23,824 nucleotides of DNA from Candidatus Methanomethylophilaceae archaeon (GCA_050944155.1 JBMNQN010000015.1:1-23824); one strand, 5' to 3'. Positions 2,210 to 8,397 are shown, counted from the first letter of the stretch. Program-made: numbers and translations. The notes: generated from the sequence alone by a model not told the origin.

Positions 2210-3823
2210 ATGCCGGACGGTAAAAACTTAATCATTCTGCTGTTCACCGCCGTATGCATGATTGCGGCCGGTTCGGTTTTTTACCTGGCAGCGGAAGATA
2301 CCGGCCGTGCGGAATACGACATAATTCTTCCCGAGGACCAGTGCGGTTACGTAATAACCTCGGACAGAACGAAAGTTGCGGACGGCGGTTCGTATAATCT
2401 TACGTACCGATGCAAACTCGGCTACGTCGACGAAGACATGGAGCTGACGATAAATTCCGTGCCTTACGTTTTGGACGGTTCCGGCAGAGTGAAAGTATAC
2501 GGCGCTCACGGAACGCAGACCGTAAAAGTAACGGGAGTCAAAAATCACGAAACACTGAATGTTACCGCGGAAGAAAATCCCGGAATAGAATTGACGGTTC
2601 CCGAGATCGTCCATAAGTAGGAAGGTTACGACATCGTATTTTCCGTAGAACACGGATACACCGTAAAAGACAACACGTTTTTGGTAATCAACGAAGAAAA
2701 GAGGCAGATCAAGAGGTACATCGGAGAAGACGGTTCCGGCGCATTCAGGGTGGAGAAGGCGGAAACGGATCAGAACATTTCCGTGACGAATCTGAATCCG
2801 GAGATATACACGGTGACTTCCGGAACAAACGTCCTCATAGAACTGAAGGGCTCCGGCGTTCCGCCCGGAAATTCGCTGGAGGCAACCGTGGAAGATACGG
2901 TGGTTGCGCATATCGCTCCCGGATACGGCTTTCCCGAAGGTTATTTCGAAAACATCGGAGGTCTGAGAAAACTGAAAGACGGATTCGGAATCGGAGGAAA
3001 TACCGAGTTTCCGTCGGTTTTCAGACTGGAAACCGGAGAGAACGTTCTGGTGAACGGAAAAAGAACTCCGGTAACATTTCTGACTCCCGCCGATTCCGTC
3101 GGTTTGGATGCGGCGGAAGGATATTCCCTGCCGGAGGGAAAAGATTTCTCTGTTTTCGAAAACATCGACGCCGGCGGAGGAAAATACAAGCTGAAAGGCG
3201 ACCAATCCGTTTCGGGTATTTTCAGGGCGGAATTCAGACTGAAATCCGGAGACGTATGCCGCACGGATTACTACTTCGGAGGAGACGGTCTGGTTCTTCC
3301 CGATTCGGAACACGTATGGACGCACGGAAATGGATACGCGATATCCGAAAACGTCTCGGTTTTTGAACGGGAAGCTTATAATGTGACGTTCAGAGGGGGC
3401 ATAAGGGCAATCATCGACGGTGTTTCGCACGATTTCTGGGAAGACACGGTGCTGAATCTGTACAATACGCAGAAAATACGGGTCCGTCCTCCCGTCGACG
3501 ATCCTCTCGCCGAATTTGCCGTGTACGTCCCGATCTGTGCGGAGCGGTTCTACGACGGGGAAGGAACATACTATCAGGTCAGGGGAGAAGCCGAATTCCC
3601 CTCCACGACTGTGGTGAGTTACGATTTCGGGTTCGGCGGAAAGAAAAAAATCCAGTACGTACACACAGGCGGAGAGTATACGCCGATCGAAGCGGAAAGG
3701 GAGAATTACGTGTTCGAGGGGTGGTACTTCGACCCCCTTTTCGAAACCAAATCCGACCCGGTGATTGCCGTCACCGAACCGTCGTATTCTCTTTATGCGA
3801 AATGGTCCGAAAAAAAGACCTAA
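2210..3823 (+). CDS. Surface/adhesin-like protein with N-terminal signal or TM segment and InlB-B / Listeria-Bacteroides-type repeats; in-frame TAG at 2618-2620 (candidate pyrrolysine, residue 137 of 537)
   Basis: Track ORFs 2210-2620 and 2681-3823 share a frame and are separated only by one TAG; the 20 codons between them are open (EGYDIVFSVEHGYTVKDNTF). N-terminus is hydrophobic (LIILLFTAVCMIAAGSVFYL). C-terminus RENYVFEGWY...SLYAKW is a typical Listeria-Bacteroides repeat. Confidence 0.75.
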
Positions 3824-3825
3824 TA

Positions 3826-3833
3826 TTTATATA
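3826..3833 (+). promoter_or_regulatory. Archaeal TATA box of the leu operon
   Basis: TTTATATA matches the archaeal TATA consensus. It predicts a transcription start near 3852-3858, just upstream of the leader ORF. Confidence 0.7.
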
Positions 3834-3872
3834 CGGCAGGTATAATCCTGAATCACCGTCTGAGGTCAGATT

Positions 3873-3917
3873 ATGAACTTCAAGCAGCACGCCGGACTTC
3901 TCCTTCTTAACGAGTGA
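3873..3917 (+). CDS. Leucine-rich leader peptide (leuL-like) MNFKQHAGLLLLNE
   Basis: ATG AAC TTC AAG CAG CAC GCC GGA CTT CTC CTT CTT AAC GAG TGA. It has its own SD (GAGGT, 3862-3866), four consecutive Leu codons (3897-3908), and ends 33 nt before the leuA ATG. Confidence 0.8.
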   Translation: MNFKQHAGLLLLNE

Positions 3918-3968
3918 GTCAGTGGAAGCTGTGACGGTTTGGTGGTTTTTATGAAAACTGAACAAACC
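3895..3968 (+). promoter_or_regulatory. Attenuator-like alternative RNA helices, including a hairpin that sequesters the leuA SD and start codon
   Basis: GGTTTG (3936-41) pairs with CAAACC (3963-68) and TGGTTTT (3943-49) with AAAACTG (3954-60), putting SD GGTGG in the stem and TATG in the loop. Competing helices lie upstream. Pairing done by eye; no energies computed. Confidence 0.6.
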
Positions 3969-5537
3969 AGTGTAAGCGCTGAAGATATGGAGAAAATGCT
4001 GGCAGTAAGTCCTTACAACCATATCGCTCTCGAAGGCACGGGTCATGTACGGGACGTCAGGATATTCGATACCACGCTGAGGGACGGAGAACAGGCCCCC
4101 GGAATAGCCCTGAGTTCCGAAGACAAGATACGCATAGCCGCCGCACTGGACGATCTGGGAGTCGACACGATCGAGGCCGGTTTCGCCGCATCGTCCGATG
4201 CGGAGAAGAATACTCTTTCCGAAATCGCCAGGATGAACCTGAACGCCGAGGTCTGCAGTCTCGCACGCTGCGTCAAAGGAGACATAGACGCAGTTCTGGA
4301 CACCGGACTGGGTTCCATGCACACGTTCATCGCGACTTCCGATCTGCACATGAAATACAAACTGAAGATGTCGCCCGAACAGGTGAAAGACAAAGCCGTT
4401 ACCATGGTGGAATACGCCAAGGACCACGGCCTGAAAGTTCAGTTCTCCTGCGAAGACGCAACCCGCAGCGACATGGATTTCATGAAAGACGTTCTCGCGG
4501 CCGTACAGGATGCCGGCGCCGATTCGATCAACATTCCCGATACCGTGGGAGTCATCATACCCAAAGCGATGTCCCACATAGTGAAAGAAGTGAAAACCGT
4601 GGTTAAGGTCCCCATATCGGTCCACTGCCACAACGACATGGGACTGGCGGTGGCCAACACCATGGCCGCCGTGGAAGCGGGAGCGACGATATGCCACGTG
4701 TGCGTCAACGGAATCGGAGAACGTACCGGAAATGCAGCTCTGGAAGAGGTCGCTCTGAACCTGTTCGCCAACTACGGCGTCCAGACTGTGGATCTGTCCA
4801 AAATAGGACAGACATCCAAGCTGGTGGAAAGGATAACCGGATTCCCCGTAGCCTACAATAAACCCATCGTGGGACGCAACGCGTTCGCACACGAGTCGGG
4901 AATCCACGTCCACGGAATCATGAATAACACGGCCACCTACGAGCCCTTCCTGCCCGAATTGGTGGGCGTGAACAGGCGCATAGTCATCGGCAAACATTCC
5001 GGGGTCCACTCCGTCCAGGGAAGACTGGACGCTCTGGGCATAAAGGTCCCGGAAGAACGCATGGACGAACTGATGGCTTCCGTCAAAGAAATTGCGGTGG
5101 GCGGAAAAGAGATCGACGACGACGAACTGGTAACGATAGCGGACCACGTAATGTGGAAAGATGCCCCCGACGAACACTCGGTAAAATTGGAAGAGTTCGC
5201 GGTTTTCACTGGGAAAGATATAACATCAACCGCCACTGTCACCGTGGACATCGCAGGCGACAGGAGAACCGTTTCCGAAACGGGAGTGGGTCCGGTGGAT
5301 GCGTCCATAAAGGCCATAAGGAAAGCCGTGAACGAACACATGTCCATGGAAGAATACAGGCTGAACGCCATAACGGGAAAGAGCGACTCCATATGCGAAG
5401 TCACCGTCATGGTGAAGAACGTCTGCGGAGAGGGAGGTCTCTCCGTGGGCAAAGCCGTGGGACTGGATATCGTGGAAACGTCCGTGGATGCAACGATGGC
5501 CGCCATCAACAAGGATTACGCCAAACAGAGGAAATGA
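3951..5537 (+). CDS. leuA: 2-isopropylmalate synthase
   Basis: Motifs DTTLRDGEQ, HCHNDMGLA, GIGERTGN and AFAHESGIH, plus the C-terminal regulatory domain (GVGPVDA). First gene of leuACDB, preceded by a Leu leader. Start placed at ATG 3951 after GGTGG; ATG 3987 is possible. Confidence 0.85.
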   Translation: MKTEQTSVSAEDMEKMLAVSPYNHIALEGTGHVRDVRIFDTTLRDGEQAPGIALSSEDKIRIAAALDDLGVDTIEAGFAASSDAEKNTLSEIARMNLNAEVCSLARCVKGDIDAVLDTGLGSMHTFIATSDLHMKYKLKMSPEQVKDKAVTMVEYAKDHGLKVQFSCEDATRSDMDFMKDVLAAVQDAGADSINIPDTVGVIIPKAMSHIVKEVKTVVKVPISVHCHNDMGLAVANTMAAVEAGATICHVCVNGIGERTGNAALEEVALNLFANYGVQTVDLSKIGQTSKLVERITGFPVAYNKPIVGRNAFAHESGIHVHGIMNNTATYEPFLPELVGVNRRIVIGKHSGVHSVQGRLDALGIKVPEERMDELMASVKEIAVGGKEIDDDELVTIADHVMWKDAPDEHSVKLEEFAVFTGKDITSTATVTVDIAGDRRTVSETGVGPVDASIKAIRKAVNEHMSMEEYRLNAITGKSDSICEVTVMVKNVCGEGGLSVGKAVGLDIVETSVDATMAAINKDYAKQRK

Positions 5538-5538
5538 A

Positions 5539-6792
5539 ATGGGAAAAACAATCGCAGAGAAGATACTTTCCGAGAAATCCGGCACCGATGCCCGTGCCGG
5601 TCAGATAGTCGTGGCCGAAGTCGATTACGTTATGGTAAACGACGTAACCGGGCCGATAGCCTTCAGGGAATTCGAGAAACTCGGCACCGACAAGATTTAC
5701 AGAAACCGCCTGGTTCTCATTCCCGACCACTACGTCCCCAACAAGGACATTCTTTCCGCCGAACAGGCCAAGGAAATGAGGGAATTCGCGTCGAAACACG
5801 ATATAAAGAACTACTACGAAGTGGGAAAAGGCGGAGTGTGCCACCAGGTCATGGTCGAAGAAGGATTCGCGGCTCCCGGAAGACTCATAGTCGGAGCGGA
5901 TTCCCACACATGCACGTACGGCGGAATCAATGCGTTCTCCACGGGAATAGGTTCAACGGAAGCATGCGCCGCGTTTGCGACGGGACGTCTCTGGTTCAAA
6001 GTTCCAGAAACGATCAAAGTGGAACTCACCGGAAAATTCAGAAAGAACGTGGGCGGCAAAGACCTGATAATCAAAATAATTACGGATATCGGAGTGGACG
6101 GAGCCAACTACAAAGTGCTGGAATTCCACGGACCCGGCGTAGCCAACGTTCCCGTTTCCGACAGACTTACGGTTTCTAACATGGCAATCGAAGCCGGTGG
6201 AAAAGCCGGAATATTCCCCTGCGATAAGCTGACCGAAGAATACATCAAAGACACGGCAAAGGGAGAGTGGAAAGCCGTTTCCGCCGATCCCGATGCGGAA
6301 TACTGCATGACGCTGAAGTACGATTTAAGCGAGATAGTTCCCATGGTCGCCTACCCCCACCTTCCGGAGAACGGAAGGCCGGTCAGCGAAGCCGACGTGA
6401 AAATAGACCAGGCTTATCTCGGTTCGTGTACGAACGGACGCATAGAGGACATGAGAATCGCTGCCGAAGTGATCAAAGGAAGGAAAGTCGCCGACGGAGT
6501 GAGGTTCCTCGTGGTTCCCGCATCCCAGAAAGTGTTCAGACAGATGATTGACGAAGGAATAACCCAGACTTTCCTGGATGCCGGCGCGTTCGTGTCCGGA
6601 CCCACCTGCGGAGCCTGTCTCGGAGGATACATGGGTATCCTCGCGGCGGGAGAGAAAGCGGTTTCCTCCACCAACAGAAATTTCATAGGAAGGATGGGCG
6701 ACAAGGCTTCGGAAGTCTATCTCGCCGGTCCCGCGGTGGTTGCGGCTTCCGCAGTGGCGGGGAAAATAGTGACCCCGGAACAGCTGGAGTGA
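5539..6792 (+). CDS. leuC: 3-isopropylmalate dehydratase large subunit
   Basis: MGKTIAEKIL start; GVCHQ, GADSHTCTYG, GSCTNGR, CGACLG and STNRNF aconitase-family motifs. Start moved to ATG 5539. Confidence 0.9.
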   Translation: MGKTIAEKILSEKSGTDARAGQIVVAEVDYVMVNDVTGPIAFREFEKLGTDKIYRNRLVLIPDHYVPNKDILSAEQAKEMREFASKHDIKNYYEVGKGGVCHQVMVEEGFAAPGRLIVGADSHTCTYGGINAFSTGIGSTEACAAFATGRLWFKVPETIKVELTGKFRKNVGGKDLIIKIITDIGVDGANYKVLEFHGPGVANVPVSDRLTVSNMAIEAGGKAGIFPCDKLTEEYIKDTAKGEWKAVSADPDAEYCMTLKYDLSEIVPMVAYPHLPENGRPVSEADVKIDQAYLGSCTNGRIEDMRIAAEVIKGRKVADGVRFLVVPASQKVFRQMIDEGITQTFLDAGAFVSGPTCGACLGGYMGILAAGEKAVSSTNRNFIGRMGDKASEVYLAGPAVVAASAVAGKIVTPEQLE

Positions 6793-6796
6793 TAGA

Positions 6797-7276
6797 ATGG
6801 ACGCAATCAAAGGAAAAGTATGGAAGTTCGGAGACAACGTTGATACCGATCAGATAATACCGGCGGAACGTCTGGTTTCCGGCAATCTGGGACATCTCAA
6901 TGATTTCATTTTCGAGAAGGTCAGGCCGGGCTTTGCGCAGGAAGTGAAAAAGGGAGACATCATCGTGGCGGGAAAGAATTTCGGATGCGGATCTTCCAGA
7001 GAACACGCTCCCCTCTCGCTGATTCAGGCCGGGGTCGCGTGCGTGATTGCGGAGTCTTTCGCCCGCATATTCTACAGAAATTCGATGAACATCGGACTGC
7101 TGCTCGTCGAATGCAAGACCGATATTAAAGAAGGAGACATTATCGAAGTGCGCCCGGACGACGGGAAAGTCATTGCCGGAAAAAAGATTTACACATTCCC
7201 CCAGTATCCTCCGTTCATCAGCGAGATGGTCAAAGCCGGAGGGCTTATGAATCTGGTAAAGGAGGGCAGACTGTGA
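6797..7276 (+). CDS. leuD: 3-isopropylmalate dehydratase small subunit
   Basis: GDNVDTDQIIP, AGKNFGCGSSREHA and SFARIFYRN motifs. Confidence 0.9.
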   Translation: MDAIKGKVWKFGDNVDTDQIIPAERLVSGNLGHLNDFIFEKVRPGFAQEVKKGDIIVAGKNFGCGSSREHAPLSLIQAGVACVIAESFARIFYRNSMNIGLLLVECKTDIKEGDIIEVRPDDGKVIAGKKIYTFPQYPPFISEMVKAGGLMNLVKEGRL

Positions 7277-8397
7277 AACATCTGGCTATTATTCCCGGAG
7301 ACGGAATAGGAAAAGACGTCATCGACGCGGGCATCGAGGTTCTGGACGCCGTATCGGAGATATCCACTTTCGATTACGACGGAGAAGTTTTCGACATCGG
7401 AGCGGAAAGGTACCTGAGAACAGGAGAGCTTCTCACCGACGAAGACATCGACAGTCTCAGAAAGAAAGACGCGGTATACTTCGGAGCCATAGGCGACCCG
7501 AAGGTTAAACCGGGCATACTGGAACAGGGCATTCTTCTCAAAATGAGGGCGGTCTTCGACCAGTACATAAACATGAGGCCGGTCACTTCCTGGTTCCCCT
7601 TCGTTCCCCTCAAGAGGGAAGTCCCGTTCAGCATGACGTTCCTGAGAGAGAACACCGAAGACTTCTACATGGGAGCCGGAGGAAAGTTCGGTCCCTCTGC
7701 CGGAGGAAAGAAATCCCGCATCAGGGTGAAAAGGGAACTTTACGATCTGGACGTAAAGATAGAAGCGGACGCTTCCGACGACGACGATTTCGCGTTCGAA
7801 ATAGGATTCCTCTCCCGCAGGGGAGTGACCAGATTCGCCGATTACGCATGCAGGTTCGCCCTCTCCAGAGGAGAGGACAAAGTGACTCTTGTCGACAAAG
7901 CCAACGTGATTACGGGAATGTACGGCATGCAGAGGGAAATATTCTCCGAAAAGGCCGAAGAGTACGGATTGGATCTGGAATTCATGTTCGTGGACGCCAT
8001 GGCGATGGCCATGATCGTCCGTCCCGAAACCTTCGGAACCGTAGCGGTACCCAACCTTTTCGGCGATATACTGACGGACCTGGGTGCACAGATCCAGGGA
8101 GGTCTGGGTATGGGATGCAGCGGAAACATTAATCCCGACGGACTGAGCATGTTCGAACCCATACACGGGTCCGCTCCCGACATAGCCGGAAAAGGCATAG
8201 CCAACCCCATAGCGGCAATCCTTGCGGCGCAGATGCTTCTCGAAGACCAGGGATACCCCGGCGAAGGAAAGATGATTCACGCGGCGGTTTCCGAATGTCT
8301 CAAGGAAAACAAAACCACCCCCGACCTGGGAGGAAAACTCACGACCAAACAGGTGGGAACGGCGGTGGCCGAGAAGATTCTCGCCGGGAAAAACTGA
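7273..8397 (+). CDS. leuB: 3-isopropylmalate dehydrogenase
   Basis: IPGDGIG, RENTED, DKANV, NLFGDILTD and FEPIHGSAPDIAGKGIANP motifs. GTG start overlaps the leuD stop (GTGA). Confidence 0.88.
   Translation: MKHLAIIPGDGIGKDVIDAGIEVLDAVSEISTFDYDGEVFDIGAERYLRTGELLTDEDIDSLRKKDAVYFGAIGDPKVKPGILEQGILLKMRAVFDQYINMRPVTSWFPFVPLKREVPFSMTFLRENTEDFYMGAGGKFGPSAGGKKSRIRVKRELYDLDVKIEADASDDDDFAFEIGFLSRRGVTRFADYACRFALSRGEDKVTLVDKANVITGMYGMQREIFSEKAEEYGLDLEFMFVDAMAMAMIVRPETFGTVAVPNLFGDILTDLGAQIQGGLGMGCSGNINPDGLSMFEPIHGSAPDIAGKGIANPIAAILAAQMLLEDQGYPGEGKMIHAAVSECLKENKTTPDLGGKLTTKQVGTAVAEKILAGKN

Follow-up and report, generated by a model that had tools for sequence, protein, structure and literature searches.

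A short leucine- and isoleucine-coding reading frame ahead of leuA in Methanomassiliicoccales looks like an archaeal counterpart of bacterial leader-peptide attenuators

Does the short open reading frame (ORF) with four tandem leucine codons that stands directly before an archaeal leucine operon, leuACDB, allow the cell to gauge its amino acid supply through the translating ribosome? The locus lies in a stretch of 23,824 nucleotides (nt) from Candidatus Methanomethylophilaceae archaeon (GCA_050944155.1 JBMNQN010000015.1:1-23824), here called the window, which is one whole contig of a 1.04-Mb genome that is 92% complete. Leader-peptide attenuation is a textbook bacterial mechanism dependent on coupled transcription and translation. 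The leader described here is real, conserved and specific to leuA. Judged from sequence comparison it is very likely regulatory, and the step that it regulates and the direction of regulation are put forward as proposals. We think it likely that positions 3826-3981 comprise the promoter and 5' leader of leuACDB and act as a cis sensor of charged Leu-tRNA, and probably of Ile-tRNA, by way of the ribosome translating the leader. As such it would seem to be the first counterpart in archaea of the leader-peptide attenuators known from bacteria, in an order of gut and digester methanogens, the Methanomassiliicoccales.

The first-pass annotation of this DNA had described a TATA box, a Shine-Dalgarno (SD) sequence, a 14-codon ORF with its leucine codons, a 33-nt spacer and leuA, and each of these lies where it had been placed:

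3826-3833, + strand: TATA box TTTATATA of the leu promoter, read in the sequence
3862-3866, + strand: leader SD GAGGT, 6 nt upstream of the leader ORF
3873-3917, + strand: leader ORF MNFKQHAGLLLLNE, 14 codons, with ATG at 3873 and the stop TGA at 3915-3917
3897-3908, + strand: CTT CTC CTT CTT, four consecutive Leu codons and putative sensors, near the apex of hairpin P2 (see below)
3918-3950, + strand: spacer of 33 nt from the leader stop to leuA, read in the sequence
3941-3945, + strand: leuA SD GGTGG, read in the sequence and added here to the earlier list
3951-5537, + strand: leuA, with ATG at 3951, a 2-isopropylmalate synthase (NCBIfam NF002085, 632.6 bits, cut-off 517)

The residues of the encoded peptide are M N F K Q H A G L L L L N E. 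Short ORFs are common enough to raise the question of whether this one arose by chance in a pyrimidine-rich spacer: a crude scan of the whole genome for intergenic ORFs of 6-35 codons returned 3110 of them, and the stability z-scores of the single-sequence fold (see below) are unremarkable. A run of at least four leucines is present in five of the 3110, two of these five being nested versions of one ORF, and the ORF at 3873 is alone among the five in combining an ATG with an SD. Conservation in relatives argues against chance more strongly.

LeuA was detected in 56 of 61 relatives. Loci from these and the named loci were pooled, duplicates and truncated contigs were removed and at least 130 nt of upstream sequence was required, giving 52 unique loci of the family Methanomethylophilaceae. 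At 47 of the 52 there is an ATG-initiated ORF, 10-18 codons long, whose end falls 22-54 nt short of leuA. Its length is exactly 13 codons in 30 of these 47 leaders and 12-14 codons in 44, and the distance from its stop to leuA is 28-38 nt in most. At least three consecutive Leu or Ile residues are found in 43/47 (LLL in 29/47, LLLL in 8/47), and at the four positions that precede the final codon, Leu or Ile is found in 33, 41, 44 and 45 of 47, respectively. Overall, Leu makes up 27% and Ile 15.5% of leader residues (n = 618), against 7.1% and 5.3% of codons in the long ORFs of the source genome. All six Leu codons are used (CTT 98, CTA 30, CTC 15, CTG 8, TTA 8 and TTG 8 times) and the +1 frame holds a stop in 45 of 47 leaders. 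Examples from the family are MIFAQHIGLLLIE, MIFTLHTELLLE, MISALHTELLLLE, MIFKLTTDELILLK, MICNAFIGLLLLLE and MVAIYDISEILLL.

The association with leuA is strict. A covariance model, R1, built from the 47 family leaders has a single match in the source genome at E <= 1, lying at 3849-3989 (E 2e-28). In a 151-genome sample of the order, R1 matches 44 of 63 family genomes, once in each except for two matches in G330, and none of the 87 genomes of the order's other families. LeuA is present in 50 of the 63, and the 13 family genomes without LeuA have no R1 match. The six that have LeuA and no match divide into three whose loci are cut by contig ends (G029, G035 and G331) and three in which the leader is truly missing (G023, G295 and G332). 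An independent set of ten R1 matches outside the training alignment has the ORF in all ten, one with a GTG start, and the Leu/Ile run in eight.

Beyond the family, a short Leu-rich ORF precedes leuA at all 58 unique loci sampled from the other families of the order, with a Leu/Ile run of at least three residues at 44/58 and the pattern [LIF]-L-R at 55/58; examples are MSIIIVDGHGLLRA, MNAQRLGLLLLLRLVPAPLL and MCIIATKLALILREY. Here the first-pass annotation, which had proposed looking for a conserved short ORF with a Leu run and synonymous variation before leuA in related archaea, is borne out throughout the order, the run being of Leu, or of Leu and Ile, and drawing, in the family leaders, on six Leu codons. 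Its description of a leucine leader holds for the conserved Leu run and has to be widened in one respect, the conserved residues being Leu plus Ile rather than Leu alone. Conservation across an order with synonymous change, together with the strict association with leuA, in effect refutes a chance origin of the ORF, to which we give practically no credence. Among outgroups of other archaeal phyla, none of 17 leuA loci (from Asgard, Nitrososphaeria, Thermoproteota, Brockarchaeota and Altarchaeum) has such an ORF adjoining leuA. Within a 201-genome sample of the phylum, LeuA at E <= 1e-120 is found only in Methanomassiliicoccales families and in one further genome, G067.

A separate observation concerns the leader ORF in the other families, where UUUUGCG (x-Leu-Arg) is invariant at the same 55/58 loci (L168-L227, L033-L052) in leaders that otherwise differ. 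This is either a constraint at the nucleotide level or a specific requirement for the UUG codon.

The peptide itself could be the product, as a hydrophobic 13-residue micropeptide acting in trans or as an arrest peptide that senses free leucine in the ribosome tunnel. Such a role would suit the conserved C-terminal pattern, the [LIF]-L-R of the other families and the conserved N-terminus, which is M-I-F or M-I-C with Ile at position 2 in 42/47 family leaders. However, conservation of the N-terminal codons is also explained by their pairing with the leader SD (in hairpin P0, below), and residues in the middle of the peptide are free to vary. Nor did a related family of small proteins come to light, although no search aimed at one was made. 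We regard this explanation as very improbable.

The first-pass annotation had also proposed looking for analogous ORFs before other amino acid operons of this genome. No leader of the kind was seen ahead of ilvB or of hisG, and there was no trpE to examine, the search for TrpE as a chorismate-binding protein having been made in this 92%-complete genome. Other short ORFs bearing residue runs (IIII, VVVV, TTTT and so on) were considered as leaders and rejected, lying as they do inside genes of the opposite strand, in rRNA or before unrelated ORFs. These results bear on a further explanation, that the upstream ORF is translated constitutively and senses nothing, and instead loads leuA by re-initiation, keeps the leader unfolded or shields the 5' end from exonucleases. 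The constant distance of 28-38 nt between leader stop and leuA would suit re-initiation, which PMC4833913 proposes at bacterial leader peptides, and a leuA start that is always structured may need the help of upstream ribosomes. Such a role nevertheless leaves unexplained why Leu and Ile should occupy codons 9-12, before the leucine operon and nowhere else in the genome, ilvB and hisG being without such an ORF. We consider it quite unlikely.

In and around the ORF, the following RNA elements were recognised, by minimum free energy (MFE) folding, by RNAalifold and by counting pairs in the 47 aligned leaders:

3855-3860, + strand: arm a ACCGUC, 5' strand of the long-range helix P1 (MFE fold; pair counts in 47)
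3861-3882, + strand: hairpin P0, leader SD against leader codons 2-3, with the leader AUG in or near the loop (MFE fold)
3884-3932, + strand: hairpin P2 (b:d plus c:c'), codons 4-10 against the stop region and the next 15 nt (MFE fold)
3933-3938, + strand: arm e GACGGU, 3' strand of P1, 2 nt before the leuA SD (MFE fold, pair counts)
3936-3941, + strand: arm f GGUUUG, 5' strand of helix P3 (RNAalifold, pair counts)
3946-3950, + strand: U5 tract before the leuA AUG, a candidate pause or termination signal and 5' strand of P3b (T-run counts)
3963-3968, + strand: arm g CAAACC, in leuA codons 5-6, 3' strand of P3 (RNAalifold, pair counts)
3968-3981, + strand: small hairpin P4, CAGUG UAAG CGCUG, in leuA codons 6-11 (MFE fold)

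Two helices stand out. P1, formed by ACCGUC (3855-3860) with GACGGU (3933-3938), encloses the whole ORF. Its seven core pairs are formed in 44, 46, 47, 46, 46, 44 and 32 of the 47 sequences, four of the pairs show compensatory, two-sided changes, and entire arms have been replaced with pairing kept, ACCGUC/GACGGU becoming ACCACCU/AGGUGGU or AGCCACU/AGUGGCU. P3, formed by GGUUUG (3936-3941) with CAAACC (3963-3968), encloses the SD and AUG of leuA. It was found unaided by RNAalifold in 23 sequences, with no broken pair and two compensatory pairs, and is 97.5% paired in the 47; variants such as GGUUCG/CGAACC and GGCUUG/CAAGUC again preserve pairing. Third-codon positions within arm g are near-invariant, the commonest pair being kept in 44 and 46 of 47, and positions frozen to this degree speak for selection on the RNA. 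Since arms e and f share the letters GGU, P1 and P3 compete. Enforcing one or the other gives predicted energies no more than 2 kcal/mol apart in 32 of the 47 leaders. Leaders from the order's other families have an enclosing helix as well, and its 3' arm either overlaps the leuA SD or lies right beside it.

The remaining structures vary in their support. The equivalent of P0 is 76% paired over the 47 sequences, with five of its seven pairs varying on one side only. For the b:d helix of P2, a count in fixed columns finds no more than 41% paired, the register shifting from one genome to the next; when each leader's own b and d windows are paired the mean helix is 6.02 base pairs long, compared with 5.29 for cross-pairs between leaders, and none of 2000 permutations reaches the own-pair mean. 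P3b, in which U5 (3946-3950) pairs with AAAAC (3954-3958), is 81% paired in the 47. P4 is 96% paired and none of its pairs has changed on both sides, so it is better regarded as conserved sequence than as proven structure. As controls, partners slid out of register are 32-46% paired as against 66-73% for the structures given here, and none of 500 shuffles reaches the observed covariation score, a figure that the kinship of the sequences inflates. It may be added that leuA codons 5-10 (CAA ACC AGU GUA AGC GCU) hardly vary at synonymous sites within the family, and that CAGUG occurs twice, at 3920-3924 after the leader stop and at 3968-3972 after arm g.

This degree of conservation immediately raises the question of whether the fold (P1, P0, P2, P3 and P4), rather than the ORF, is the functional entity, as the site at which a protein, a tRNA or a small ligand controls leuA, with the ORF tolerated or auxiliary. 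In a T-box-like variant, the Leu codons would be displayed in the P2 loop and UGGU beside the leuA SD. Nucleotides are indeed conserved beyond coding need in ACCGUC, GACGGUUUGGUGG, CAAACCAGUG (leuA codons 5-8) and the repeated CAGUG, as well as in the UUUUGCG that is invariant inside the ORF at 55/58 loci of the other families, and one locus, in genome G237 (see below), keeps the arms and has no Leu run. For the superficially similar actinobacterial LEU element, moreover, the discussion of mechanism in PMC1262725 favours a protein. Set against this, the ATG, its spacing from the SD, the frame and the C-terminal Leu/Ile run are all kept while codons vary synonymously; the frame persists through insertions and deletions, with 44/47 leaders still 12-14 codons long; the ORF is present at 58/58 loci of those very families in which R1 matches 0/87 genomes; and no Rfam family, T-box or riboswitch was matched. 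We therefore hold a binding site without a sensing ORF to be unlikely.

For a leader-peptide sensor, the ORF has to lie within the transcript. Of the 47 loci aligned, 46 were counted, and in 33 of these a TATA-like 8-mer (score >= 6) lies 21-22 nt 5' of the A that opens ACCGUC, the range being 18-27 nt. When the usual archaeal spacing from TATA box to start is applied, this distance would place the mRNA start at or next to that A, near position 3855; arm a would then be the 5' end of the mRNA and the leader ORF would be inside the transcript. The start, predicted in this way, is thus probably near 3855 and upstream of the leader ORF. RNA evidence comes from four metatranscriptome runs in the form of assembled contigs, without ends, strand or growth conditions. 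In run X3, one contig spans 3907-4086 without a difference and joins the 3' part of the leader to leuA. The contigs of the four runs give no cover over 3000-3906, where absence of cover carries no meaning. The leuA SD takes the form GGTG or GAGGTG in relatives, and the 3' end of the 16S rRNA of the source genome is ...GGATCACCTCCTAA.

Returning to the proposed sensor, the geometry suggests that a ribosome on the leader ORF would melt P0, P2 and very probably P1, and that P2 and P1 would be unable to form for as long as it sat there. Were charged Leu-tRNA scarce, the ribosome would dwell on codons 9-12 and the leader would stay unfolded much longer. For the source genome and its family, two outputs of such a sensor are kept, each conditional on the sensor itself. 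In the first, transcription attenuation, P1 followed by UUUGGUGGUUUUU would be a site of premature pausing or termination: P1 would fold and transcription stop when the ribosome was absent or had finished, and a stalled ribosome would suppress the site and give read-through, which is the right logic for such a sensor. We put this at a little short of an even chance. In the second, translational attenuation, P1 and its competition with P3 would set the access of ribosomes to the leuA start, which we rate as possible and rather more doubtful. The rest would be left for outputs that depend on the ribosome in some other way, for instance by shielding the mRNA 5' end from decay.

Evidence for termination comes from the T-run before leuA. 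Runs of at least four occur in 34 of the 47 leaders and of at least five in 22, compared with 4.4% and 1.3% of 929 SD-bearing ORF starts, an enrichment of about 10-fold over the background of the source genome. Archaeal terminators are described as U-rich tracts in the passages of PMC7515710 that concern them, with two consecutive tracts in Methanococcus maripaludis. As to the leuA start itself, narrow-window opening of the leuA SD and AUG has a median cost of 8.2 kcal/mol. In an equilibrium model in which pairs spanning the ribosome are forbidden, the wide-window cost is lower in 27 of the 47 leaders, falling from 14.3 to between 13.7 and 11.9 kcal/mol according to the position of the ribosome, a modest relief of 0.6-2.4 kcal/mol. 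The arm of the enclosing helix that lies over or next to the leuA SD in the other families would suit start-site access as the output, with an occlusion lifted by a resident ribosome.

A number of observations weigh against a ribosome-operated switch, or against one or other of its outputs, and are best taken together. The related genomes compared are not independent samples, and their kinship inflates the figures for conservation and covariation; the leader folded on its own shows no unusual stability (z = -0.96 and -1.24); and the entire element is missing at five of the 52 family loci (L027, L028, L077, L080 and L095). At a further locus, L145 (G237:C1:485770-486270), arms a, e and g are kept (a weak R1 match, E 7e-6) with no Leu run. 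The stretch enclosed there is GC-rich and its only ORF has a GTG start and 18 codons; a decayed or rewired leader is possible. As to termination, 13 of the 47 leaders keep the ORF and have no T-run of at least four, U5 starts 7 nt past the end of P1, and the pairing of U5 with the A-run in leuA codons 2-3 could account for conservation of the T-run without termination. Folds of the individual sequences contain no classical 1:2/2:3/3:4 hairpin set. A scan for sigma-70 promoters and bacterial terminators, a bacterial design not intended for archaea, returned nothing on the + strand, where it saw no local GC-rich hairpin followed by a T-run. In the terminator passages of PMC7515710, dependence of archaeal termination on a hairpin is not established. 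As to start-site access, equilibrium models with a stalled ribosome lower the narrow-window opening cost in none of the 47 leaders and raise it in 13; with ribosome-spanning pairs forbidden, the median rises from 8.2 to 11.2 kcal/mol and the cost is higher in 36 of 47. Equilibrium folding thus fails to show a stalled ribosome opening the leuA binding site. In Methanomethylophilaceae, freeing arm e completes P3, and the equilibrium models then yield no narrow-window opening. The first-pass annotation had called the locus a candidate ribosome-mediated attenuator, and that description survives in the conserved leader ORF and the covarying helices; a classical terminator and antiterminator set after the ORF is what it lacks.

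The mixture of Leu and Ile codons would fit a pathway in which LeuCD and LeuB also served isoleucine synthesis via citramalate, a conjecture that may account for the mix. No threonine dehydratase scored over cut-off in the source genome and no separate citramalate synthase was seen there. The sole LeuA paralogue in the genome is a homocitrate-synthase-like protein of 392 residues (nifV model, 481 bits, cut-off 463; G000:C8, L002:406-1584, - strand), which adjoins pelota.

How does the element compare with known systems? Like enterobacterial leuL and the trpL, hisL and pheL attenuators, it consists of a short ORF with its own SD directly upstream of a biosynthetic operon. It further shares with the leuL/trpL type the tandem end-product codons near the 3' end of the ORF, RNA helices that overlap as alternatives to each other, and a run of U ahead of the first structural gene. 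The differences lie, first, in an archaeal host, where the promoter is of the TATA-box kind and both polymerase and termination are archaeal, and, second, in the RNA, where there is neither a mutually exclusive 2:3/3:4 hairpin set, the topology of a:e and f:g being different, nor a compact GC-rich terminator hairpin. Unlike the bacterial ORFs, the archaeal one is contained in full within a single long hairpin that the predicted mRNA 5' end closes, the second helix reaches into the leuA coding region and holds its SD and AUG, and Ile codons accompany the Leu codons. By this analogy, the element looks like one that works as a bacterial leader-peptide attenuator does, minus two defining classical features, the 2:3/3:4 set and the compact terminator.

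In the translational attenuators of resistance genes of the ermC and cat type, a stalled ribosome frees the partner strand of a hairpin that hides an SD and AUG. The arrangement here is comparable in having a leader ORF followed by a gene whose SD and AUG lie in a conserved hairpin, with stalling in the leader as the proposed input. It differs in that the partner, arm g, lies downstream inside leuA, that modelling shows no clear opening on stalling, and that tRNA charging would take the place of an antibiotic as the signal. In attenuation of the pyrBI type, a closely following ribosome blocks the terminator hairpin and the signal is polymerase pausing at low UTP. Were termination the output of the leader, the two would have in common a ribosome inside a hairpin, blocking that hairpin before a U-tract with no need of a separate antiterminator helix, and would differ in the signal, here ribosome stalling on amino-acid codons.

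The actinobacterial LEU element, as presented in the parts of PMC1262725 devoted to it, resembles the archaeal leader in being compact, with a closing stem beside the leuA SD and no obvious terminator. In that element the run of Leu codons pairs with the leuA SD, and a pseudoknot has been proposed (PMC1262725), whereas the archaeal Leu codons sit at the tip of P2, in its apical loop and stem, and it is the predicted mRNA 5' end that makes up the stem next to the SD (a:e). No sequence similarity was detected between the archaeal leader and the LEU element, and a permissive Rfam cmscan of 3500-4300 returned only two unrelated families at chance level (E 0.94 and 6.3).

The first-pass annotation knew of no characterised archaeal leucine attenuator, and our literature search agrees: no archaeal leader-peptide attenuator of any kind was found, in a search that covered subscription journals thinly, so that an older report is conceivable. 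The discussion of upstream small ORFs in a paper on the Haloferax small proteome merely calls them reminiscent of leader peptides (PMC10117724), and the passages of PMC8448881 on the subject state that no archaeal attenuation or antitermination is known. We suggest, tentatively and as a claim that may well prove too strong, that this is the first archaeal family of ribosome-mediated attenuators, spanning the Methanomassiliicoccales and possibly reaching further (the single case of G067, below), in which stalling on Leu/Ile codons inside a hairpin closed by the 5' end decides whether polymerase stops at a U-tract before leuA. Attenuation at the U-tract, if true, would be direct natural evidence of transcription-translation coupling in archaeal gene control. 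Should the output be translational or based on decay, this would still be the first amino-acid-sensing upstream ORF proposed for an archaeon. In either case, a conserved and easily mutated element of 130 nt offers a test bed for how archaeal ribosomes might steer termination or start-site access. It bears on how gut and digester methanogens sense their supply of branched-chain amino acids, and it implies that archaeal ORFs which gene callers pass over for their shortness can have regulatory roles.

The remaining genes of the locus are as follows:

2681-3823, + strand: upstream ORF of 380 amino acids, stop at 3821-3823
5488-6792, + strand: leuC-like ORF (NCBIfam)
6797-7276, + strand: leuD-like ORF (NCBIfam)
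7273-8397, + strand: leuB-like ORF (NCBIfam)

Scores for the LeuC and LeuB equivalog models of NCBIfam fall under their cut-offs, and subfamily models pass for LeuC and LeuD. LeuA has an N-terminal extension of about 30 residues, its family profile match beginning at residue 32-36. In metatranscriptome run X2, a contig matches leuA from 3962 on and is preceded by 30 letters unlike the window. This contig may stem from a co-occurring strain or relative whose leader or leuA 5' end differs, or it may be chimeric.

Two observations concern leuA leaders in other archaea. In G067, which belongs to another class of the same phylum, the locus L138 (G067:C93) has a 29-codon ORF rich in Leu, Val and Ile, MKNVELATRIGCESLLVLGLVVLVSLISH, about 170 nt upstream of leuA. 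It is accompanied by a TATA box and an SD, and tracts of U4, U3 and U5 follow the ORF before the leuA SD. In this one genome, it looks like a multivalent branched-chain leader. At six loci from Brockarchaeota, Thermoproteota and 'Thaumarchaeota' (L085, L086, L088, L089, L090 and L096), a different conserved structured leader lies about 130 nt upstream of leuA. It consists of a long helix, GGAGGUGU...ACACCUCU, around a GCCC-AAAGG-GGGC hairpin, followed by UGUUGAAAAACA and the SD GGAGG; it contains no short Leu ORF and has no Rfam match at gathering thresholds. This could be an unrelated RNA element of the leucine pathway.

Finally, on the other side of the promoter, only two bases separate the stop of the upstream ORF (3823) from the TATA box TTTATATA. 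The product of this ORF carries a C-terminal Listeria-Bacteroides repeat (TIGR02543, E 4e-8) and, from that match, is probably a surface protein.

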